DNA from: a virus
Lineage: Duplodnaviria > Heunggongvirae > Uroviricota > Caudoviricetes
Strand: one strand, 5' to 3'
DNA: 7,858 bases
IMG/VR virus record: IMGVR_UViG_2850808358_000013
Coordinates: 1-7,858 of that record
The notes beneath the pieces were generated by a model that was not told where the DNA came from, searched no databases, and worked only from the letters and a program-made list of their open reading frames with translations. Both the position numbers and the translations under genes were made by a program. Shown here in pieces: positions 1 through 7,858 of the stretch. Position 1 is the stretch's first letter. Each line of letters begins with the position of its first letter.

Positions 1-939
1 TTATTTGATTTCAATTTTGTCCCACTCCCTGCCTCTGTCATCACGATACTGTGATGCCATGGTGTCCGACTTGTGCCCGAGAAGATGTTGAGCAAACTTA
101 TCGCTTATCTGCTTCTCATAGAGTCTTGCAGACAAACTGCGCAACTCGTGAAAGGTAGGTGGATCCCCTTCGAAGGAAAGACCTGATGCTTTTCGTGCGC
201 GCATAAAATACCTTGATACTGTGCCGGATGAAAGCGGTTCACGACGAGTAGATGCAATTATGGTTTCTCCGCCAAGAATCTCTTTGCATTTATCAAGTGT
301 TTCCTTCATTGATATCCCGAGAGCATCAACATGCAATGTTGTAGGGATGGCAATTTTTACGCCTGTTTTGCTTTGCTCGACATAAAGATATCCATCTACG
401 ATATCAGACCACTTCATTTCGCATAAATCACCAACTCGTTGCCCGGTAACAACAGCCAGTTCCATTGCAAGTCTGAGCCAACATGGTGATGATTCTGCTG
501 CTTGATAAATTTTCAGGTATTCGTCAGCCGTAAGTCTTGATCTCCTTACCTCTGATTTTGCTGCGCGAGTGGCAGCGACCGGGTTTGTTGTTATATGGCC
601 TTCAGCTATTGCCTCTCGGAATGCATCGCTCAGTGTTGATCTGATTAACTTGGCTGATGCCGCCTTGCCCTCGTCTATGTATCCATTGAGCATTGCCGCA
701 ATTTCTTTTGTGGTGATGTCTTCAAGTGGAGCATCAGGCAGCCCCCTCCTTATTGCTTTAATTTTGCTCATGTAATTTATGAGTGTCTTCTGCTTGATTC
801 CTCTGCTGGCGAGGATTTTTTCGTAGCGAGCAAGCCATGAATGTAACGTAACAGAATTATCACTGTTGATTCTCGCTGTCAGAGGCTTGTGTTTGTGTCC
901 TGAAAATAACTCAATGTTGGCCTGTATAGCTTCAGTGAT
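1..939 (-). pseudogene. int: Lambda-type tyrosine integrase (Int), 5'-truncated remnant; the longest ATG-initiated ORF is 1..771
   Basis: Minus-strand translation ends ...HLLGHKSDTMASQYRDDRGREWDKIEIK with the stop at 1-3, which I recognise as the C-terminus of phage lambda Int; the catalytic signatures HELR, LLGH and SQY are present. My manual translation upstream of the M at 771 continues in frame (..ITEAIQANIELFSGHKHKPLTARINSDNSVTLHSWLARYEKILASRGIKQKTLINYMSKI..) up to 939, where the frame enters the IS terminus and meets a stop (955-957). About 37 N-terminal codons and the start codon are missing. Confidence 0.9.
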
Positions 940-968
940 TGAGGTAGCCTGAGTTTAACGGACACTCC
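940..968 (+). repeat. Left terminal inverted repeat of the IS600-like element
   Basis: tgaggtagcctgagtttaacggacactcc; pairs with the reverse complement of the right end (tgaggtgtactggcaatagcggacactacc), about 20 of 29 positions identical. Confidence 0.6.
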
Positions 969-1003
969 TTCCTGAAATAGAATGGCATCAGAAGGAGCTA
1001 ATA

Positions 1004-1306
1004 ATGAGCAGAAAAACCCAACGTTACTCTAAAGAGTTCAAAGCTGAAGCTGTCAGAACGGTTCTTGAAAATCAACTTTCGATCAGTGAAGGCGCTTCCC
1101 GATTATCCCTTCCTGAAGGCACTTTAGGACAATGGGTTACCGCCGCCAGAAAAGGGCTCGGTACTCCTGGTTCCCGCACGGTGGCTGAACTGGAATCTGA
1201 AATTCTGCAACTGCGTAAGGCGTTAAATGAAGCTCGCCTTGAGCGAGATATATTAAAAAAAGCAACAGCGTATTTTGCACAGGAGTCGCTGAAAAATACG
1301 CGTTAA
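1004..1306 (+). CDS. IS3-family transposase OrfA (helix-turn-helix plus leucine-zipper-like C-terminus)
   Basis: 100-aa ORF with AGGAG 6 nt upstream of the ATG; the product ends ..ERDILKKATAYFAQESLK, typical of IS3-family OrfA; the slippery run lies near its 3' end. Confidence 0.9.
   Translation: MSRKTQRYSKEFKAEAVRTVLENQLSISEGASRLSLPEGTLGQWVTAARKGLGTPGSRTVAELESEILQLRKALNEARLERDILKKATAYFAQESLKNTR
1255..1261 (+). other. Programmed -1 ribosomal frameshift site (A AAA AAA followed by G) generating the OrfAB fusion transposase
   Basis: The heptamer aaaaaaa + g at 1255-1262 sits in the orfA frame as tta-aaa-aaa-gca; the orfB frame (the frame of the ATG at 1342) is exactly -1 relative to orfA. This is the known IS3-family mechanism (established for IS911 and IS3). 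Confidence 0.6.
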
Positions 1307-1341
1307 TCGAACAATGGCGACAACAATTTCCCATTGAAGCG

Positions 1342-2160
1342 ATGTGTCAGGTATTTGGTGTATCCAGGAGCGGTTATTACAACTGGGTACAGCATGAACC
1401 CTCAGACAGAAAACAAAGTGATGAGCGGCTAAAACTGGAGATTAAGGTGGCACATATCCGCACTCGCGAAACATATGGAACCCGGCGGCTCCAGACGGAG
1501 CTGGCAGAGAATGGCATCATCGTTGGTCGTGACCGACTGGCACGTCTTCGTAAGGAGCTAAGGCTACGCTGTAAGCAGAAACGCAAGTTCAGAGCGACTA
1601 CGAACCCGAACCACAATCTGCCAGTTGCGCCAAATCTGCTGAACCAGACGTTCGCTCCTACAGCACCAAATCAGGTCTGGGTGGCGGACCTGACGTATGT
1701 TGCCACACAGGAGGGATGGTTGTACCTCGCTGGCATCAAAGATGTTTATACGTGCGAAATTGTCGGCTACGCCATGGGAGAGCGCATGACAAAAGAGCTG
1801 ACAGGTAAAGCCCTGTTTATGGCGCTCAGGAGCCAGCGCCCACCTGCCGGGCTAATCCACCACTCTGATCGAGGTTCACAGTACTGCGCATACGATTACC
1901 GGGTCATACAGGAGCAGTTTGGTCTGAAAACATCAATGTCGCGTAAAGGTAACTGTTACGACAACGCTCCGATGGAAAGCTTCTGGGGAACGCTGAAAAA
2001 TGAGAGCCTGAGCCACTATCGTTTTAATAACCGGGATGAAGCCATCTCAGTAATACGGGAATACATTGAGATTTTCTACAATCGTCAGCGTCGTCACTCT
2101 CGTCTGGGGAATATCTCCCCGGCAGCCTTCAGGGAAAAATATCATCAGATGGCTGCTTAA
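1342..2160 (+). CDS. IS3-family transposase OrfB (DDE / retroviral-integrase-like catalytic core)
   Basis: 272-aa ORF containing DDE motif elements (..VWVADLTYV.., ..HHSDRGSQY.., ..NAPMESFWGTLKNE..); it lies in the -1 frame relative to orfA. Confidence 0.9.
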   Translation: MCQVFGVSRSGYYNWVQHEPSDRKQSDERLKLEIKVAHIRTRETYGTRRLQTELAENGIIVGRDRLARLRKELRLRCKQKRKFRATTNPNHNLPVAPNLLNQTFAPTAPNQVWVADLTYVATQEGWLYLAGIKDVYTCEIVGYAMGERMTKELTGKALFMALRSQRPPAGLIHHSDRGSQYCAYDYRVIQEQFGLKTSMSRKGNCYDNAPMESFWGTLKNESLSHYRFNNRDEAISVIREYIEIFYNRQRRHSRLGNISPAAFREKYHQMAA

Positions 2161-2174
2161 AAAAAGAACAAATG

Positions 2175-2203
2175 GTAGTGTCCGCTATTGCCAGTACACC
2201 TCA
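2175..2203 (+). repeat. Right terminal inverted repeat of the IS600-like element
   Basis: ggtagtgtccgctattgccagtacacctca ends in CA-3'; its reverse complement matches the left repeat. Confidence 0.6.
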
Positions 2204-2283
2204 TTCAGTTAATGCCTCGCAGAAAAAGCGCTCCTGCTGCTTAACAAATTCAACGATATCGAACATTTTTTTGGTCCTGAAAA

Positions 2284-2565
2284 TCAGAAAGGACAGGGGG
2301 AGAATTTTCTCTCCCATTCTTCTTCCGCCCGAGCATAGGCGATCGCTGAGATATAATCGTTGTACGCCTCTTCAGCTTTTTCGCCAGTGAGTGCCAGTTG
2401 GGCTTCTTTGGGTAAAAAAAGGCTGCTCATAAGCAATGGTTTATCGGGGAACATGCTGATAAGCTCCTGCGCCCGATCATCAATCCATTTATCCTTTTCA
2501 TCCTGAATATGCTGATTAACCCAGCGACGCTCCTCTATGCGGTCGCAGGTGAGGTATGCGTTCAT
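2284..2565 (-). CDS. Hypothetical small acidic protein (93 aa), last gene of the Rha operon
   Basis: ORF with AGGAG 9 nt upstream of the ATG (reverse complement of 2566-2580); its start is 20 nt after the stop of the upstream ORF. By my count 19 D/E versus 12 K/R. No family recognised. Confidence 0.55.
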   Translation of the reverse strand: MNAYLTCDRIEERRWVNQHIQDEKDKWIDDRAQELISMFPDKPLLMSSLFLPKEAQLALTGEKAEEAYNDYISAIAYARAEEEWERKFSPCPF

Positions 2566-2585
2566 GGCGGAACTCCTGATTCCGG

Positions 2586-2867
2586 TTAATGCATTAAATT
2601 AATTTGTCGGGAAAGCTGACAGACAGGGCAGTTACATTCTTCCTCCTGCTCTTTAGCGAAGAAATATGCAGCGGCCTGTAATGCGATGTCTTCTGGATGT
2701 TCCGCGATAAACATAACATTGCCTTCCGTATCAATAACAGAAATAGCCTCATCAGGCAGGACGACAAAATAGGCGATGATTTTATCATCCATAAAAACTT
2801 CTCCCATTATCGTTTCTGCTGGCGTTATGACGTTTTTTACATTGATATTAATTTTTTGATTGAGCAT
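2586..2867 (-). CDS. Hypothetical small, strongly acidic protein (93 aa) with a C-terminal C-x-C-x-x-C motif
   Basis: ORF with AAGGA about 7 nt upstream of the ATG; its start is 11 nt after the stop of the upstream ORF. About 15 D/E versus 5 K/R; ends ..EECNCPVCQLSRQINLMH. No family recognised. Confidence 0.55.
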   Translation of the reverse strand: MLNQKININVKNVITPAETIMGEVFMDDKIIAYFVVLPDEAISVIDTEGNVMFIAEHPEDIALQAAAYFFAKEQEEECNCPVCQLSRQINLMH

Positions 2868-2878
2868 GATATTTCCTT

Positions 2879-3091
2879 TCAGGCTGGTGAGATTAACGGT
2901 TGGCCTTTATGGTTCAGGTAAACTTCGATTGCATCTGAAATAATGCGGATTTTTTCAATCAGTGAATGTGCGTAAAGTGCATTATTAACGTTAGCTGACG
3001 CCATGTAATAACGCCCGTTGTAAAGAATTGCTGTACCGGGTTTAACGTCCTCGCGAGAAACTAATGCGGTTCCGTAGTGAGGTTTGAGCAT
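2879..3091 (-). CDS. Hypothetical small protein (70 aa)
   Basis: ORF with a strong GGAGG 7 nt upstream of the ATG (reverse complement of 3092-3110: ccGGAGGatttgtcATG). Same strand and tight spacing with the neighbouring genes. Confidence 0.55.
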   Translation of the reverse strand: MLKPHYGTALVSREDVKPGTAILYNGRYYMASANVNNALYAHSLIEKIRIISDAIEVYLNHKGQPLISPA

Positions 3092-3130
3092 GACAAATCC
3101 TCCGGTTAATTAATCCAGATATTTAATTTA

Positions 3131-3153
3131 ATCCCCGATATGTGATCGGGGAT
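3131..3153 (-). other. Perfect 9-bp inverted repeat (hairpin) between the Rha gene and the 70-aa ORF
   Basis: atccccgat-atgtg-atcggggat; on the minus-strand mRNA it is followed by an A/U-rich stretch (UAAAUUAAAUAU) rather than a clean U-tract. Confidence 0.4.
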
Positions 3154-3161
3154 GGGGTTAA

Positions 3162-3800
3162 TTAAAGATTAACGTTGAAACCAAAGCGGGAAGACTTTTC
3201 CGATGTGCGGGAAATATCCAGCAATTTACGGCGCATTTCTTCCGTCAGATGCTTGAAGGCGTTAAATTCGGCGACAGCCGCATCGACGTTATAGCCGTTA
3301 CGACGTAATTCATTAAATATGCGCATTGCAGGGCTTGGCATGTCGAATAAGACGGAGGTATCAAGCTGCAATGTATTTCTATCAACATAGTTCATCGTGG
3401 CATAGGGGTGATGCTCTGAAAACCACGATAAAGGGAAATTGATATTCATCGCAGGAGAAGACAGGGCCAGTTGTTTCTGTTCCCATAGTTGTTTTTCCAT
3501 GCGATCGAATTCAGCAATGTAGGCTTCCTTGAATGCAGCTGCTTTTTTGCCGGTGAAGCCCATCACCAGAAAAACGAAGCCGTTTTTGGTGATTTGGTAG
3601 GCGTTATAGGTATTGCCTCGGTGTTCGAATTTAACCCGCGAAAAGTTGCGGGTTAAGAATTGCTCAGAGCATTCGAGGGATTCTATTTTCTGAACAACAT
3701 GGTGATGCTGCTTGCCAAAAAACTCAGCAATCGAAATAGAAGTAGTGACGGCGCGACCATTTTCGATGGTTACGTCAGGGTGAGAAAGGGTAGTAGCCAT
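3162..3800 (-). CDS. rha: Rha-family phage regulatory protein (pRha domain; antirepressor-like)
   Basis: N-terminus MATTLSHPDVTIENGRAVTTSISIAEFFGKQHHHVVQKIESL...YQITKNGFVFLVMGFTGKKAAAFKEAYIAEFDRME matches the pRha N-terminal domain as I remember it. Start chosen at ATG 3800 (GAGGA 7 nt upstream) rather than the track's 3959; the 53-codon in-frame extension is GC-rich and low-complexity. Confidence 0.8.
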   Translation of the reverse strand: MATTLSHPDVTIENGRAVTTSISIAEFFGKQHHHVVQKIESLECSEQFLTRNFSRVKFEHRGNTYNAYQITKNGFVFLVMGFTGKKAAAFKEAYIAEFDRMEKQLWEQKQLALSSPAMNINFPLSWFSEHHPYATMNYVDRNTLQLDTSVLFDMPSPAMRIFNELRRNGYNVDAAVAEFNAFKHLTEEMRRKLLDISRTSEKSSRFGFNVNL

Positions 3801-3830
3801 AATGACATCCTCAAGTGATAAGTTAATTAA

Positions 3831-3937
3831 CTCACCACCAGAGGTGCTAATCTCATGGGTGGTGAGACGCACAGGGTTAGCACTACCGGTCACTCGAGAA
3901 CCCGGCCAGCCTTGCGGCTGCCCCGCACGCCTCACCA
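3831..3937 (-). promoter_or_regulatory. Structured 5' leader of rha with three copies of a complementary motif allowing alternative hairpins
   Basis: Plus-strand ctcaccacc (3831-3839) and ggtggtgag (3858-3866) form a perfect 9-bp stem; a third copy ctcacca (3931-3937) can alternatively pair with the middle element. cagcc-ttgc-ggctg (3907-3920) is a GCAA (GNRA) tetraloop hairpin on the minus-strand RNA. Confidence 0.4.
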
Positions 3938-3961
3938 TAATTTGAATGTGGCTGTGCATTA

Positions 3962-4043
3962 CGCATAAAAAAACCGCTTCAGCGCGGTTATGCGCTCGAG
4001 TAACTTTCGGGGTGCTAATCCCGGCACCCGTTTTATGAGGTGT
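3962..4043 (-). ncRNA. Putative small RNA (about 80 nt) between a promoter-like motif and an intrinsic terminator; hypothetical
   Basis: Minus-strand -35 TTGACT (4078-4073), 17-nt spacer, -10 TATATT (4055-4050). The predicted transcript 5'-ACACCUCAUAAAACGGGUGCCGGGAUUAGCACCCCGAAAGUUACUCGAGCGCAUAACCGCGCUGAAGCGGUUUUUUU contains a 6-bp GC hairpin (4010-4029) and the terminator hairpin; no plausible ORF. Confidence 0.25.
3967..3989 (-). terminator. Rho-independent terminator acting on minus-strand transcripts
   Basis: Minus-strand RNA AACCGC-GCUGAA-GCGGUU followed by a U-run (plus-strand A-run 3967-3973); the stem is short, so moderate strength; preceded by a second hairpin. Confidence 0.45.
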
Positions 4044-4049
4044 TCGCCA

Positions 4050-4078
4050 AATATAGCCCCGACATCACACGCAGTCAA
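4050..4078 (-). promoter_or_regulatory. Sigma70-like promoter candidate P2 (TTGACT-17-TATATT) on the minus strand
   Basis: Hexamers read directly from the reverse complement; shares the 11-mer TATTGACTGCG with P1. Confidence 0.3.
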
Positions 4079-4383
4079 TATCGTCCTTTCTCGGAAATGC
4101 TTTGGCGGTGCCGCCTGCACCCAAAACATTCCCTGTATTGGTCAGCGCCAACTTCCTGCCAGTGTTGCCCGTTCTCACGCCGTTCTCGCTCTCGCGCGGG
4201 GATACTCTCTCATCGACCGGATCGCACCCGATGATACAGCACGTTTACGTGTAGGGGTCTAAACAGGTCATTGACGCTGTAAAGCTCCAGATTGTTAAAG
4301 AGCATTTTGCGGCGGGTTAAGTCGCGCCGTACGACTGATTTATGTAGCCCTGTGTCAGGGCGCGATGTTTCTGGCTTGGGTAA

Positions 4384-4413
4384 AATATAATAAGTGCAAC
4401 TGATCGCAGTCAA
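4384..4413 (-). promoter_or_regulatory. Sigma70-like promoter candidate P1 (TTGACT-18-TATATT) on the minus strand
   Basis: Reverse complement of agtcaa (4408-4413) and aatata (4384-4389); sits in an AT-rich block; the same TATTGACTGCG 11-mer as P2, about 335 bp upstream of it. Confidence 0.25.
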
Positions 4414-4641
4414 TAGCAAGACTAATAATTTAATTTTAATCTATGTGATTGATTTTTAGATTAATTTATTTATGTAAAAAATATAAGCGAGGATAATGCA
4501 GGTGGTGAGTTATGGAGGATGCGCAAAGAAAAAACGGCGCTGAGGCCGGTTACTCTGTGTTAGATTTGGTGTGAGGGAACCCCTGATAACACTAAGAAAA
4601 GCAGTGAACAGTCAAAGAGAACCCAGCGGGCTTGGTGGCTT

Positions 4642-4670
4642 TTGACAAAAACATCGCCTGTAACTATAAT
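4642..4670 (+). promoter_or_regulatory. Consensus sigma70 promoter for the hicAB-like operon (TTGACA-17-TATAAT)
   Basis: ttgaca at 4642-4647, 17-nt spacer, tataat at 4665-4670. The palindrome aacta-taat-tagtt overlaps the -10 and is a candidate autoregulatory operator. Confidence 0.6.
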
Positions 4671-4699
4671 TAGTTGCAATGTAGCGAAGATGAGATTAT

Positions 4700-4954
4700 G
4701 TGGGTATGGGGAAAGCAGATAAGCTACTGGAAAAGTTTTTAAACAGTAAAAAAACGTTTGAATGGGATGAGTTGGTCGTTTTGTTTTCCTCTCTGGGATA
4801 TGTCAAAAAGGAAATGCAGGGCTCAAGAGTGCGGTTTTTCAATGCTGAAATCAACCACACCATATTAATGCATCGCCCACATCCAGAAAGTTATATTAAA
4901 GGTGGAACGCTGAAAGCGATTAAACAGAATCTGAAAGAGGCTGGGGTATTATGA
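4700..4954 (+). CDS. hicA: HicA-family toxin-like protein (YcfA/HicA fold, putative mRNA interferase); initiation may be at ATG 4706
   Basis: ..KADKLLEKFLNSKKTFEWDELVVLFSSLGY..QGSRVRFFNAEINHTILMHRPHPESYIKGGTLKAIKQNLKEAGVL fits the HicA pattern as I remember it; the stop overlaps the next start (ATGA at 4951-4954). The track start is GTG 4700. Confidence 0.7.
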   Translation: MGMGKADKLLEKFLNSKKTFEWDELVVLFSSLGYVKKEMQGSRVRFFNAEINHTILMHRPHPESYIKGGTLKAIKQNLKEAGVL

Positions 4955-5295
4955 ATCATCTAAAATATAAAGGATATTTAGGTACAGTAGAACCAGATTT
5001 TGAAAATAATATCCTGTACGGAAAACTGGCGTTTATTCGAGACCTGGTAACTTATGAGGCTTCTACATTAGCTGAACTGGAACAGGAGTTTAAGACATCG
5101 GTTGAGCTGTATTTACAGTCTTGTGTGGAGGATGGAAAGGAGCCTGATACCCCGTTTAAAGGTGTGTTTAACGTCAGACTTGATCCAGAACTGCATCGTC
5201 GGGTCGCTGAAATGGCGATGGAAGAAGATTTATCACTGAACGCCTTTGTTAATAAGGCGCTGGAAAAAGAAGTCAACCATCACACAGGGGCTTAA
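4951..5295 (+). CDS. hicB: HicB-family antitoxin-like protein with a C-terminal ribbon-helix-helix DNA-binding domain
   Basis: N-terminal YKGYLGTVEPDFENNILYGKLAFIRDL..EEPDTPF resembles HicB N-domains; C-terminal KGVFNVRLDPELHRRVAEMAMEEDLSLNAFVNKALEKEV is RHH-like; 4-bp overlap with hicA. Confidence 0.7.
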   Translation: MNHLKYKGYLGTVEPDFENNILYGKLAFIRDLVTYEASTLAELEQEFKTSVELYLQSCVEDGKEPDTPFKGVFNVRLDPELHRRVAEMAMEEDLSLNAFVNKALEKEVNHHTGA

Positions 5296-5382
5296 TGTTC
5301 CCTTCGTCTTTGACATCCTCACCGCCGAAGAATGGGGAATTTACGGCGCACTGGTAAATGGTGGGGCGAGCAGGAGGCAAAC

Positions 5383-5408
5383 AAAACCCGGCACCAAGGC
5401 CGGGTTTT
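5383..5408. terminator. Bidirectional Rho-independent terminator between the convergent hicAB-like operon and the repressor operon
   Basis: aaaacccggc-accaag-gccgggtttt: a perfect 10-bp stem with a 6-bp GC core and a 6-nt loop, with an A-run upstream and TTTTGTT downstream, so a U-tract follows on both strands. Confidence 0.6.
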
Positions 5409-5409
5409 G

Positions 5410-5580
5410 TTATTGGTGCATTTGGCAGGTTGTAATATCTGGTCCATAAGCCAAAGTAAAAACAGGCTTGTTGATCAAGCCCATGTTCTTTAATGATTGA
5501 ATCATTTTTCCTTGCTCGCTAACTTTTTGCTTGCTAAGTATTTCTTCCACTTGTTGTGTCAAGGATTTGTCTTTGTTCAT
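5410..5580 (-). CDS. Unlisted 56-codon ORF between the repressor gene and the terminator; hypothetical
   Basis: Manual translation of the minus strand gives MNKDKSLTQQVEEILSKQKVSEQGKMIQSLKNMGLINKPVFTLAYGPDITTCQMHQ; the stop lies 2 nt from the terminator stem; only a weak GTGAG Shine-Dalgarno. Below the ORF-track length cutoff. Confidence 0.3.
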   Translation of the reverse strand: MNKDKSLTQQVEEILSKQKVSEQGKMIQSLKNMGLINKPVFTLAYGPDITTCQMHQ

Positions 5581-5701
5581 TTATGGCTCACTTGATTGCG
5601 ACTGCTCCCCGCCCGCATTGGGCGAGGGTTCTCGGAGATTTTTCGCTGAAAAAGGAAATAAAATAGCCTCCCTGCAAGGTTATTGATATCATCCTGTGAG
5701 T

Positions 5702-6421
5702 TCAATCAAAAGTCTCATCATTCCACTGCGACTTTATGACCTTTCCGACAAACGGGCAGTTTTCGTTACACTCAATCATGTCGAATCGTGGGTTGAGTGG
5801 CTCCAGGTACGCTTTACCGCTCTCACGAATGAATCGTTTGAAGGTGAATTCATCGCCATTCATTCGGGCCACGCAAAAATCGCCATCCTCAATCTCCCGC
5901 TCAGGGTCAACGAGTATCAGCATCCCTTCGGGGAAACTGGGTTTACCACCCTGCGGCGCGGTCATTGAATGCCCCTTGACCTCCAGCCAGAACGACCTGT
6001 CACTGGCTTTTGTGGTGGTGGAGATCCACTTAATCGCATCCTTTGCGGTGTACGAAAAATCATCCATTGAGAAAGCTCCAGCCTGTACGCAGGAGAGTAA
6101 CGGATATTCGTAATATTTCTCGAACAGGTTACGCCTGTTTCCCGGTGTGTGGGTACGAATACTGCGTAACAAATCACTCAGATCTGGATTAATTTCTTCC
6201 GCAGGAACCTGTAATAAAGCCGCAAACTTAAGGGTATTTTCAGTATTTAACGCAATTTTTGCGTTCAATAACTGACTAACAGCCCCCTGCGTTTTGAAGC
6301 CGAGGATATCTGCGGCTTTTTCCTGGCTTAGGGATAGCTGTTTCCGTTTTTCATCCCAGATTTTGCGCAGTCGTTCAGCGTTCTGGATGTCTTTGTCAGT
6401 AATTGTAATTTTCTTCGTCAT
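5702..6421 (-). CDS. cI: Lambda cI-like prophage repressor (N-terminal HTH, C-terminal LexA/S24 autopeptidase domain)
   Basis: The C-terminal half is nearly colinear with lambda cI as I recall it (..[16 protein letters not shown].., ..[30 protein letters not shown].., ..[13 protein letters not shown].., ..[14 protein letters not shown]); Ala-Gly cleavage site, Ser (GHSM) and Lys (FKRF) all present. Start set at ATG 6421 (GGAGG 4 nt upstream) rather than the track's 6460. Confidence 0.9.
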
Positions 6422-6472
6422 AGTGCCTCCAATTTTATTAGCAACACAAATATTTATCAAATAGCTGGCCTG

Positions 6473-6500
6473 TTGACATTTAAATCAGGTAAGCTAATAT
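6473..6500 (+). promoter_or_regulatory. pR-like sigma70 promoter for the cro-like gene (TTGACA-16-TAATAT) in the divergent repressor/cro intergenic region
   Basis: ttgaca at 6473-6478 and taatat at 6495-6500; GGGAGG 6 nt before the ATG at 6527; the palindrome atttaaat lies in the spacer. The leftward repressor promoter and the operators were not resolved. Confidence 0.5.
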
Positions 6501-6526
6501 CGGAAAATTGAAATGGGAGGATCTCT

Positions 6527-6766
6527 ATGACTCTTGACGAGTACTTGAGACAAAGCTCTATCAGACAAGCCGATTTTGCGGCGATTGTTGGAGTTTCTCA
6601 GGGATTTGTCAGTGGGGTTATTACAGGGAGATACATGCCTCAGGGGCGGAAAGCCATTGAATGGGCAAAAGCTACAGACTGGAATGTAACTCCCCATGAA
6701 CTAAACCCGCATGACTACCTAAACATGGAAGATGGTATTCCGCTTCATGTAAGGCAAACAGCCTGA
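6527..6766 (+). CDS. Cro / YdaS-like small HTH regulator (79 aa)
   Basis: Divergent from the repressor gene with a strong SD; ..IRQADFAAIVGVSQGFVSGVITGRYMPQGRKAIEWAKATDWNVTPHELNPHDY fits the Cro/YdaS-type HTH pattern as I remember it. Confidence 0.7.
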   Translation: MTLDEYLRQSSIRQADFAAIVGVSQGFVSGVITGRYMPQGRKAIEWAKATDWNVTPHELNPHDYLNMEDGIPLHVRQTA

Positions 6767-6770
6767 TAAC

Positions 6771-6783
6771 CCTCCATCGGAGG
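6771..6783 (+). promoter_or_regulatory. Hairpin that pairs the Shine-Dalgarno sequence of the downstream ORF with an anti-SD
   Basis: cctcc-atc-ggagg: a perfect 5-bp stem whose 3' arm GGAGG is the SD located 5 nt upstream of the GTG start at 6789; it begins 5 nt after the cro-like stop. Confidence 0.4.
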
Positions 6784-6788
6784 TGTGA

Positions 6789-7070
6789 GTGAACAGGCAA
6801 ATCAAAACGGTTATGCCCGATCAGTACTGTGATGCTGATCGGGACTGGATACAGGAGCAATTGTTACAGCTAGACCCGACCACCAGGGTAAAAATTGCAG
6901 CAGAGTACGCGAGAGTGTACCAGGAAGAGTGGGACAAGGAGCCTGTATCGTTCAGGAAGGGCAACAGGGCAAGACGGAGCGCCAACACCCGGTTACGGGT
7001 GTATGTCCAGAAGTACGCGAGAGCCAGCCGTGGCTGGATGTTTTCGCCAGTAGCGATACGGAAGGAATAG
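6789..7070 (+). CDS. Hypothetical protein (93 aa; GTG start) in the position of cII / early-right genes; basic C-terminal half
   Basis: ORF directly downstream of the cro-like gene with GGAGG at -5; product ..DRDWIQEQLLQLDPTTRVKIAAEYARVYQEEWDKEP..RKGNRARRSANTRLRVYVQKYARASRGW..; no family recognised. An alternative ATG lies at 6813. Confidence 0.5.
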   Translation: MNRQIKTVMPDQYCDADRDWIQEQLLQLDPTTRVKIAAEYARVYQEEWDKEPVSFRKGNRARRSANTRLRVYVQKYARASRGWMFSPVAIRKE

Positions 7071-7096
7071 ATCTCATCAAGGTTATTATTTTTTTG

Positions 7097-7141
7097 TGAA
7101 ATGATTTCGCATGAAATCATTGCGCTTGAAATTTTACTAAG
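7097..7141. repeat. Three TGAAAT motifs at exact 15-bp spacing, with an embedded 9-bp inverted repeat
   Basis: TGAAAT at 7097, 7112 and 7127; units 1 and 2 match at 12 of 15 positions; inverted repeat aatgatttc (7100-7108) / gaaatcatt (7113-7121) with a 4-nt spacer; preceded by a T7 run and followed by tandem AAGGGGGT / AAGGGGGC (7142-7157). Confidence 0.45.
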
Positions 7142-7307
7142 AAGGGGGTAAGGGGGCAGATCTGTAACATCCGTGCCTGTAAGGGCACTACCAGAGGAAG
7201 GCAGCTCCATAGGTTAGGTAGATCACTGTATAGGGTGAGATGGTTTCTGACGAAATTGTTATTATGCTAACCATTACGGTAGAAATAGTACCATACTCAT
7301 CAAACAT

Positions 7308-7483
7308 GTGGTTATCAGCCTGCTCGGAAACAAATTCTACACCGGAAAAGACAAGGTCACGTTTGATTATGTGCTGGCTGCCAAATTGCGTGATGCCGGA
7401 CTGGCGATCGAACGTAATTATCTGGTTGATATGGCAACGGTAAGCGCGGATTCGTCGATATCATGGTCGTTGCCCCATCTGGT
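7308..7483 (+). pseudogene. Fragment of an unidentified gene, 3'-truncated by the IS911 insertion
   Basis: Protein-like frame ..GNKFYTGKDKVTFDYVLAAKLRDAGLAIERNYLVDMATVSADSSISWSLPHL runs straight into the IS terminus at 7484; the final residues and stop of the track ORF are encoded by the IS end. No convincing start or RBS (GTG at 7308 only). Confidence 0.35.

Positions 7484-7858
<375 letters not shown>

Follow-up and report, generated by a model that had tools for sequence, protein, structure and literature searches.

The stretch of DNA considered here, called the window below, is positions 1 to 7,858 of the IMG/VR virus record IMGVR_UViG_2850808358_000013, 7,858 nucleotides (nt) in all. The window is the integrase-to-cro portion of a degraded lambdoid prophage, and its nearest relatives found with BLAST are the Oslovirus ("Eru1") Shiga toxin 2a (Stx2a) phages and E. 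coli prophages. Between an antirepressor-like gene and a hicA/hicB toxin-antitoxin pair lies a gene-free block (3990-4640), which may well be the control region that heads the early-left (PL) operon, on the minus strand, of an Eru1/Oslovirus-type Stx-phage-like prophage. On this strand the order of transcription is the terminator of the cI operon, an AT-rich segment with a promoter, an untranslated leader of about 300 nt, a second promoter with the small RNA (sRNA) IsrK, the C4 RNA and the antirepressor gene. The same layout is found in relatives including PA2, phi191 and LC710660. The element of main interest lies in the leader, where positions 4306-4149 hold a real, widespread and unannotated structured RNA attached to a consensus boxA. 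Nothing else in the block is out of the ordinary: besides the probable PL promoter with its left operator (OL) segment it contains a terminator, the remnant of a gene and the promoter of IsrK with the 5' half of that sRNA.

A preliminary description of the block had taken it for non-coding regulatory DNA of a phage early region, poor in open reading frames (ORFs), and this was borne out. The ORFs of at least 50 amino acids (aa) overlap one another on both strands, and searches of the block ORFs against Pfam and PHROGs gave no family match (best E=0.034). The switch in composition noticed earlier is also real, as 4000-4260 is 55.6% GC and 4380-4500 is 23.1% GC. The latter is the lowest-GC 121-nt segment of the whole window, for which the median is 45%, and the AT-rich string quoted at the time is located at 4431-4474. 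Two features had been missed, namely that the downstream promoter drives the known IsrK sRNA and that the GC-rich half encodes the conserved, boxA-led structured RNA.

An unannotated structured RNA attached to boxA

The element and the conserved parts of the leader around it are as follows.
4149-4306 (158 nt), minus strand: the conserved element, made up of boxA, a spacer of about 30 nt and a five-helix RNA of about 110 nt, found with covariance model R1
4292-4304, minus strand: boxA, TGCUCUUUAACAA, the only exact match in the window in a pattern search
4267-4262/4160-4155, minus strand: P1, a long-range helix, CCUGUU/GGCAGG
4256-4254/4170-4168, minus strand: P2, CCC/GGG
4251-4248/4243-4240, minus strand: P3, a hairpin, CACG/CGUG
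4234-4225/4219-4210, minus strand: P4, a hairpin, UCAUCGG.../...CCGGUCGAUGA
4199-4194/4189-4180, minus strand: P5, a variable hairpin
4347-4361, minus strand: leader hairpin GCCCUGACACAGGGC, present in the predicted fold and by eye like a lambda/P22 boxB, but 5' of boxA
4320-4336, minus strand: second leader hairpin AGUCGUACGGCGCGACU, just 5' of boxA
4090-4112, minus strand: short conserved piece CGCCAAAGCAUUUC, the onset of the 5'-untranslated segment before the first early-left ORF in phi80 and KO-TP1

Model R1 matches 4306-4149 with 174.8 bits (E=3e-39). The fold was derived from 19 representatives of less than 95% identity, which were aligned with MAFFT and folded with RNAalifold and by inspection. 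On this alignment 96.3% of the cells are paired, compared with at most 44% when the partners are slid against each other. Compensatory pairs occur at 10 of 28 positions against 3.1 +/- 1.0 in shuffles, a value that was equalled in none of 500. When 36 distinct sequences are fitted to the model, 98% of the cells are paired and 14 of 28 pairs are compensatory, on an alignment that leans towards the model. P3 alternates between A-U and G-C in about half of the sequences, and P5 gives way in other members to hairpins that are unrelated to it and differ in length. Three changes in P1 are compensatory in the lineage of Edwardsiella phage Edno5; a local hairpin, ACAG...CUGU, which competes with P1, is lost in the same lineage, and P1 was preferred. 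The RNA is read from the strand that PL transcribes, because the invariant G-U pairs work only there. No reading frame is open across the members, whose lengths differ by non-multiples of 3. A protein-coding reading was rejected on this lack of a frame conserved across relatives and on the missing Pfam and PHROG matches for the block ORFs. Rfam 15 holds no family for the element, either in a whole-window scan at E<=1 or with 4080-4420 alone at E<=10.

The boxA, TGCTCTTTAACAA at 4304-4292, begins 73 nt past the predicted PL start. Its GCTCTTTAACA is a perfect fit to GYTCTTTAANA, the gamma-proteobacterial boxA consensus (PMC5725501). In the alignment of the family most boxA positions vary little or not at all, and the variants that occur, GCTTTTTAACA and GCTCATTAACA, deviate at positions 4-5. 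The sequence 5' of boxA is of more than one type. The hairpin at 4361-4347 is limited to the window/PA2 type of leader and is missing from the phi80 type, and in phi80, HK225 and Edno5 a different hairpin abuts boxA. In phi80 (L004 2483-2500) and HK225 (L005 2983-3000) this abutting hairpin and the U-rich boxA UGCUUUUUAA were together scored as terminator-like, and boxA may overlap a weak attenuator in this type. On the 3' side, phi80, KO-TP1 and others have a further conserved leader piece, CGCCAAAGCAUUUCUCCCGCAUCAGCGGGUAAC.ACAGAGGG.AAG, which contains a small hairpin, stands directly 5' of the start codons of unrelated first ORFs and is seen at L004 ~2800-2850, at L010 ~3330-3380 and in many IMG/VR loci. 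In the window this piece is cut short by the IsrK promoter, and no more than its first 14 nt are left (4112-4090).

The element is not confined to the Eru1 phages. In a distant BLAST search with 4085-4440, homology to phi80, HK225 and Klebsiella phage KO-TP1 starts at boxA and extends 150-185 nt downstream, and Edno5 matches the element core at 78%. In phi80 the element has the annotated O-L region on one side and the first early-left ORF on the other, and in HK225 it begins 65 nt 3' of an annotated promoter. Its position is 3' of the repressor gene and 5' of kil, gam or recombination genes in phi80, HK225, KO-TP1, Edno5, PA2 and phi191. The ORFs that follow it are heterogeneous, yet the RNA is more than 90% identical among phages with unrelated downstream ORFs. 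A 29-nt core pattern finds the element in at least 119 IMG/VR contigs. Model R1 added 18 further copies among 100 metagenome loci, which had been taken from 120 matches to a gapped pattern and are mostly chance matches. Of 5,426 complete E. coli genomes, 224 also contain the 158-nt element, and the carriers include O104:H4, O103:H2, O111:H8 and O145 strains as well as phi80-derived laboratory strains. No annotation lies under the element in any of the 30 E. coli matches listed or in any record inspected, and it is a candidate for a new Rfam family.

Promoters, terminators and small RNAs of the block

The features on either side of the element are given here in the order of transcription.
4553-4611, minus strand: what is left, frameshifted, of the 3' end of a 127-aa gene; phage F039 (L001) has this gene intact, ending in ...GLFPHAKSHTE and a stop
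4526-4552, minus strand: intrinsic terminator closing the cI/accessory-gene operon, CCGGCCUCAGCGCCG and a U-run, -7.6 kcal/mol, kept in L001, L003 and PA2
4414-4500, no strand: AT-rich segment, candidate OL operators and/or UP element, 19.8% GC over 4415-4500, specific to the immunity type
4384-4413, minus strand: sigma-70 promoter TTGACT-18-TATATT from the promoter scan, read as PL, with a predicted start near 4377
4050-4078, minus strand: sigma-70 promoter TTGACT-17-TATATT of the IsrK-like sRNA, from the promoter scan, with the same arrangement in PA2 and phi191
3967-4043, minus strand: IsrK-like sRNA (77 nt) with its own intrinsic terminator (Rfam RF01394; stem 3989-3972, U-run to 3967)
3855-3942, minus strand: C4-type antisense RNA (Rfam RF01695), 78.6 bits against a gathering score of 45

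The terminator at 4552-4526 lies directly 3' of the last gene of the cI-side operon in the alignment. A C-to-A change in the window weakens its stem, and the scan tool missed it because the stem there has fewer than five pairs. The 20-codon ORF that had been put forward as a peptide candidate (4512-4574) translates as quoted but does not hold up as a peptide, for it is antisense to this conserved terminator and is itself unconserved, having 16 codons in relatives, while PA2 lacks the segment with the upstream GGTGGTGAG and the start codon of the ORF. A perfect 12-nt inverted repeat, GGTGGTGAGTTA, has one arm in the same GGTGGTGAG (4501-4512), earlier described as SD-like (like a Shine-Dalgarno sequence), and the other just 5' of the antirepressor ribosome-binding site (3828-3839). 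The arms are 661 nt apart and a repeat of this length is near chance. The gene remnant at 4553-4611 carries a 4-nt deletion relative to L001, whose homology extends to window position 4611. The rest of the 127-aa gene has been replaced in the window by hicAB and its promoter.

The promoter at 4413-4384 and the AT-rich segment upstream of it belong to one immunity type. Matches to relatives break at 4378-4390, that is, at the -10 hexamer and start site, which marks a mosaic joint. PA2 has the same leader from the joint onward, preceded by another promoter and another AT-rich segment. L003, whose CI is 99% identical to that of the window, has the promoter and AT-rich segment in common with it. 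When the window CI (5702-6421) is compared with that of PA2 (L008 108-821), the C-terminal halves are near-identical, with one substitution past residue 120, and the N-terminal DNA-binding halves are only about 35% identical. Judged from these comparisons, the exchange of a CI domain defines two immunity types on one backbone. Since the segment and promoter (4500-4384) both change with the DNA-binding half of CI and head the early-left genes, they are most likely OL and PL, under presumed control by CI.

Promoter-like sites had been reported at 4413-4384 and 4078-4050. Both are where they were said to be, each fits 10 of 12 consensus positions in the promoter scan, and both are probably real promoters. 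The scan gives three such sites in 1.3 kb against 2.1 +/- 1.6 in shuffles. The 11-mer TATTGACTGCG was also described as duplicated, and its two minus-strand copies do exist at 4080-4070 and 4415-4405, but as a feature the duplication is unconserved and at chance level. Pairs of identical 11-mers number 49 in the window compared with about 21 +/- 6 in shuffles, and the copy listed as upstream reads TATTGACTATG in the nearest relatives, which do not keep the exact 11-mer. Because such pairs are common in the window and the exact copy is not conserved, the identity was taken as a coincidence. The two promoters have nothing in common beyond the neighbourhoods of their -35 and -10 hexamers.

The module at the left edge is a known one, like that of P1 immI and Gifsy-1, with the layout a1/b1 - C4 - a2/b2. 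The IsrK match covers window 4043-3967 and model positions 1-77 of 77 with 61.6 bits against a gathering score of 50. The model starts at 4043, which is 7 nt past the -10 hexamer of the downstream promoter. The terminator at 3967 in the preliminary description is the one that belongs to IsrK (-9.1 kcal/mol). The layout agrees with membership in the IsrK family, with an own promoter and an own terminator followed by C4 and the Rha/Ant gene. In C4, GUGCUAA is complementary to UUAGCAC, which occurs both in IsrK and in the leader after C4 just 5' of the ribosome-binding site of the antirepressor gene; a further C4 sequence, CUCGAGU, has its complement, ACUCGAG, in IsrK. C4 thus belongs to its family, with an a2-site match at the Shine-Dalgarno sequence that is imperfect as judged by eye. 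IsrK and C4 are already annotated in LC710660 and both RNAs also occur in PA2 and phi191. The window shares with P1/P7 immI and with Gifsy-1 isrK-orf45-anrP the IsrK-family promoter and body (4078-3967), C4, the Rha/Ant gene and the a/b complementarities. It differs from Gifsy-1 in that the module lies within the PL operon directly 3' of the boxA element, whereas Gifsy-1 has antQ upstream (PMC4825925). In the isrK-leader-anrP region of Gifsy-1, IsrK is found in two forms, a short sRNA and a read-through mRNA (PMC4825925).

Several smaller observations concern this module. An upstream ORF from 3959 on the minus strand runs in frame with the Rha/Ant gene through 3800 with no intervening stop. 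RefSeq has a 257-aa "Rha family" protein at 3146-3919 of the relative L002, whose gene would run across the C4 RNA, and LC710660 uses an internal ATG start. The long form of Rha is probably an over-extension, or else the in-frame-fused counterpart of orf45/icd. A 24-nt direct repeat of 75% identity links 3896-3919 and 4617-4640. Just 5' of the hicAB promoter the sequence is similar to the complement of the C4 hairpins, perhaps as what is left of another C4-type RNA, and it has no Rfam match. In two related prophages the Rfam family sRNA-Xcc1 is found above its gathering score beside antA/antB-type antirepressor genes (L003 2977-3065 and L009 4871-4954), and this is a second type of sRNA paired with antirepressors at the same operon position.

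Known antiterminators and a possible function of the element

Ribosomal RNA (rRNA) operons and arrays of clustered regularly interspaced short palindromic repeats (CRISPR) resist Rho by means of a boxA placed early in a long non-coding transcript (PMC7665894). The element resembles the rRNA operon (rrn) leader, which has boxB, boxA and boxC and works with NusB/E/A/G, SuhB and S4, and also the boxA leaders of CRISPR arrays and suhB, in that a consensus boxA stands close to the start of a long transcript that is not translated. Many members of the element family have a hairpin just 5' of boxA, as the rrn leader does, and no phage protein partner is evident. The element adds a conserved five-helix RNA of about 110 nt for which rrn leaders have no counterpart, and it lies in a phage early operon that contains intrinsic terminators. 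In the window the PL leader is untranslated for about 575 nt, from the start near 4377 to the first start codon at 3800, and the IsrK terminator is about 160 nt 3' of the element in the PL transcript. Intrinsic terminators are also found 3' of the element within the early-left operon of phi80 and HK225.

The put RNAs of HK022 and HK639 are cis-acting antiterminators that bind the zinc-binding domain of the RNA polymerase beta' subunit. Like put, the element is a folded and conserved RNA that lies just 3' of PL in N-less lambdoid phages and is independent of the genes downstream, and it is present as a single left-operon copy, as is annotated for HK639. It is larger, with five helices in about 110 nt and an attached boxA compared with two stems in about 70 nt. 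A BLAST search with putL recovered HK022, HK75, O276, phiEt88, HK639 and others but no element-bearing phage, and model R1 with filters off gave no match at putL or putR of HK022 (L011). Homology to put was rejected on these two results. The only resemblance between the sequences is a short motif, GAACGGGCAAC in the element and GAACGGCAAU in put, which can serve as a lead. With the nut sites of lambda and P22 the element shares a boxA in the PL leader upstream of terminators, and the phi80 stretch is 5' of a gene named N. The element is far larger than a nut site, however, and neither an N homologue nor a nutR partner was found for it. The few nt 3' of its boxA hold no boxB as in lambda; the first conserved hairpin on that side is P3, about 45 nt away. 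By its sequence and layout the element is neither a classical nut site nor a detectable relative of put.

How do these early-left operons pass their terminators? The literature searched holds no account of this for the Eru1/Oslovirus phages, and the same question applies to phi80 and HK225. The Eru1 phages are reported to have no N, CII or CIII (PMC8044961). A scan of the early-left and post-cro ORFs gave no match to an N-family protein, and this was not an exhaustive scan of whole phage genomes. We propose, with moderate confidence, that the element is a cis-acting antitermination leader linked to Nus factors. The proposal is made because boxA fronts a long non-coding transcript and because the RNA sits where put sits in HK022. 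A conserved and covarying RNA with a consensus boxA at the position of nutL and putL makes the element a concrete candidate for an antiterminator.

The sequence of events would be as follows. The cI/accessory-gene operon would stop at the terminator 4552-4526, and the CI-type-linked AT-rich segment and sigma-70 promoter (4500-4384) would serve as OL and PL. Transcripts from PL would begin near 4377 and contain one or two hairpins, boxA at 4304-4292 and the five-helix RNA down to about 4150. The boxA would recruit NusB/NusE and other Nus factors, and the folded RNA may stabilise or extend the modification of RNA polymerase. Polymerase that started at PL could then resist Rho along the untranslated leader and pass the IsrK terminator at 3967 and the later ones. 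Read-through would reach C4, the antirepressor gene, kil, gam and the recombination genes, and would stand in for the missing N protein. Polymerase from the promoter at 4078-4050 starts 3' of the element and would therefore mostly halt at 3967, giving the 77-nt IsrK-like sRNA. The transcript of about 410 nt that had been suggested earlier, from the upstream promoter to the 3967 terminator, is the predicted product of PL transcripts without antitermination. If this is correct, the choice of promoter would explain how one locus gives a short sRNA (IsrK) and a long operon transcript.

Several points weigh against this interpretation. The family that was sampled is narrow and enterobacterial, with all members above 140 bits, and many of the compensatory changes are shared by descent. 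The boxA of the phi80 type, GCTTTTTAACA, deviates from the consensus at position 4. Complexes of the rrn type chiefly suppress Rho-dependent termination and are weak on intrinsic terminators, and read-through of the IsrK terminator would consequently need a contribution from the extra RNA. The Gifsy-1 IsrK promoter gives some read-through of the IsrK terminator without such an element (PMC4825925). In 19.5 kb of the right operon of PA2 there was no R1 match below E=0.1 and no boxA within 2 mismatches; with no second copy there, the right (PR) operon must manage without the element. For the control of PL, word and dyad searches of 4375-4530 against the cI-cro intergenic region found no clear repeated dyad for CI operators. 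The sole match was 14 of 17 positions, between TAGCAAGACTAATAATT and TAGCAACACAAATATTT. Control by CI is accordingly kept as a supposition, because individual operators could not be picked out.

The strongest alternative is that boxA alone protects the long untranslated transcript against Rho, in the manner of rRNA operons and CRISPR arrays, and that the five-helix RNA has another role, as a stable processed RNA, a trans-acting or sponge sRNA or a signal for stability or processing. This is unlikely. The boxA fits its consensus in front of some 575 nt of untranslated leader, boxA-dependent protection of non-coding arrays is documented (PMC7665894), and prophage regions are rich in sRNAs, with IsrK and C4 adjoining the element itself. 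The structured RNA, however, stands at a constant distance of about 30 nt from boxA in all members of the family, which suggests that the two are one unit. A scan found neither a terminator nor a promoter of its own flanking the element, and the invariant single-stranded runs give the impression, and it is an impression only, of a surface for contact with protein or polymerase more than of a seed region.

A second alternative, that the element is a large nutL site, is improbable. It would serve an N-like phage protein not recognised as such, possibly encoded elsewhere, and P3 or P4 would act as boxB. In phi80 the homologous stretch does lie between O-L and the gene that the depositors named N, and a nutL site is said to have been reported in this stretch by Tanaka and Matsushiro in 1985. 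Atypical N systems with extra nut sites exist, as in mEp021 with Gp17 (PMC11893012). Against this, the phi80 "N" belongs to a PHROG of unknown function, its N-terminus is not rich in arginine and only 7 of the 131 element-bearing loci encode it, and on its rarity and its PHROG it was rejected as the general partner protein. The RNA stays more than 90% identical where the downstream ORFs are unrelated, the Eru1 phages are reported to be without N (PMC8044961), PA2 has no nutR-like second copy, and about 45 nt separate boxA from the first hairpin compared with about 8 nt in lambda. The options of the preliminary description, namely a degraded gene, an H-NS/IHF binding region or an 11-mer marking a duplicated regulatory unit, are very improbable: a gene remnant of about 60 nt does exist and the roughly 20% GC of 4415-4500 is a composition favoured by H-NS, but outside 4553-4611 the block shows no gene, its ORFs having no protein homology and no frame conserved across relatives, the GC-rich half shows covariation of the RNA type, the AT-rich part changes alongside the DNA-binding domain of CI and so points to OL/PL and away from nucleoid proteins as the main explanation, and the 11-mer is an unconserved chance repeat.

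To return to the antitermination leader, a bolder form of the proposal is tentative and itself rather unlikely. In this form boxA and the five-helix RNA would join put and EAR as a third kind of processive antiterminator RNA acting in cis. It would replace N by joining a boxA-loaded Nus complex to polymerase, with resistance to both Rho and intrinsic terminators. Lambdoid phages without N, phi80 and the Eru1 Stx2a phages among them, would have it as their early antitermination device. The chance that the element is a new class of RNA is fair. If it works as proposed, it would add such a class to the few processive antitermination devices and would link Nus loading of the rrn type with cis action of an RNA like put. 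The Eru1/Oslovirus Stx2a phages include those of the 2011 O104:H4 and 2006 O103:H25 outbreaks.

Other genes of the window

The remaining features of the window are listed below.
1-771: truncated lambda-type integrase
~1004-2160: IS3-family insertion, orfA 1004-1306 and orfB 1342-2160
2284-3091: gam/kil-type genes
3162-3800, minus strand: Rha/Ant-type antirepressor-like gene, the first protein gene of the operon (PHROG 995, 518 and 1760; E-values to 4.5e-98)
4642-4670, plus strand: consensus hicAB promoter from the promoter scan, TTGACA-17-TATAAT, 12/12, the right boundary of the block
4700-5295: hicA/hicB toxin-antitoxin pair, annotated in the relative L003
5702-6421: LexA-like CI repressor
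6527-6766: cro
7520: onset of orfA of a second insertion sequence (IS), which interrupts the right operon

The prophage is regarded as degraded because its integrase is truncated, an IS3-family element is inserted and a second IS splits the right operon. The IS3-family element occupies the place that xis, exo and bet have in relatives. We take the two IS elements to resemble IS600 and IS911, which would suggest a Shigella-like host. The insertion of the hicAB pair lies between PL and the cI operon, and the pair is read from the other strand. Between hicB and a small ORF that lies downstream of cI, a perfect 13-bp hairpin (5380-5411) can terminate transcription in both directions. The ORF after cro (6789-7070, 93 aa; PHROG 852, function unknown) encodes a stretch rich in arginine, RKGNRARRSANTRLR, close to the C-terminus. 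Its product gave no match to an N family and is the sole arginine-rich small early protein that was noticed.

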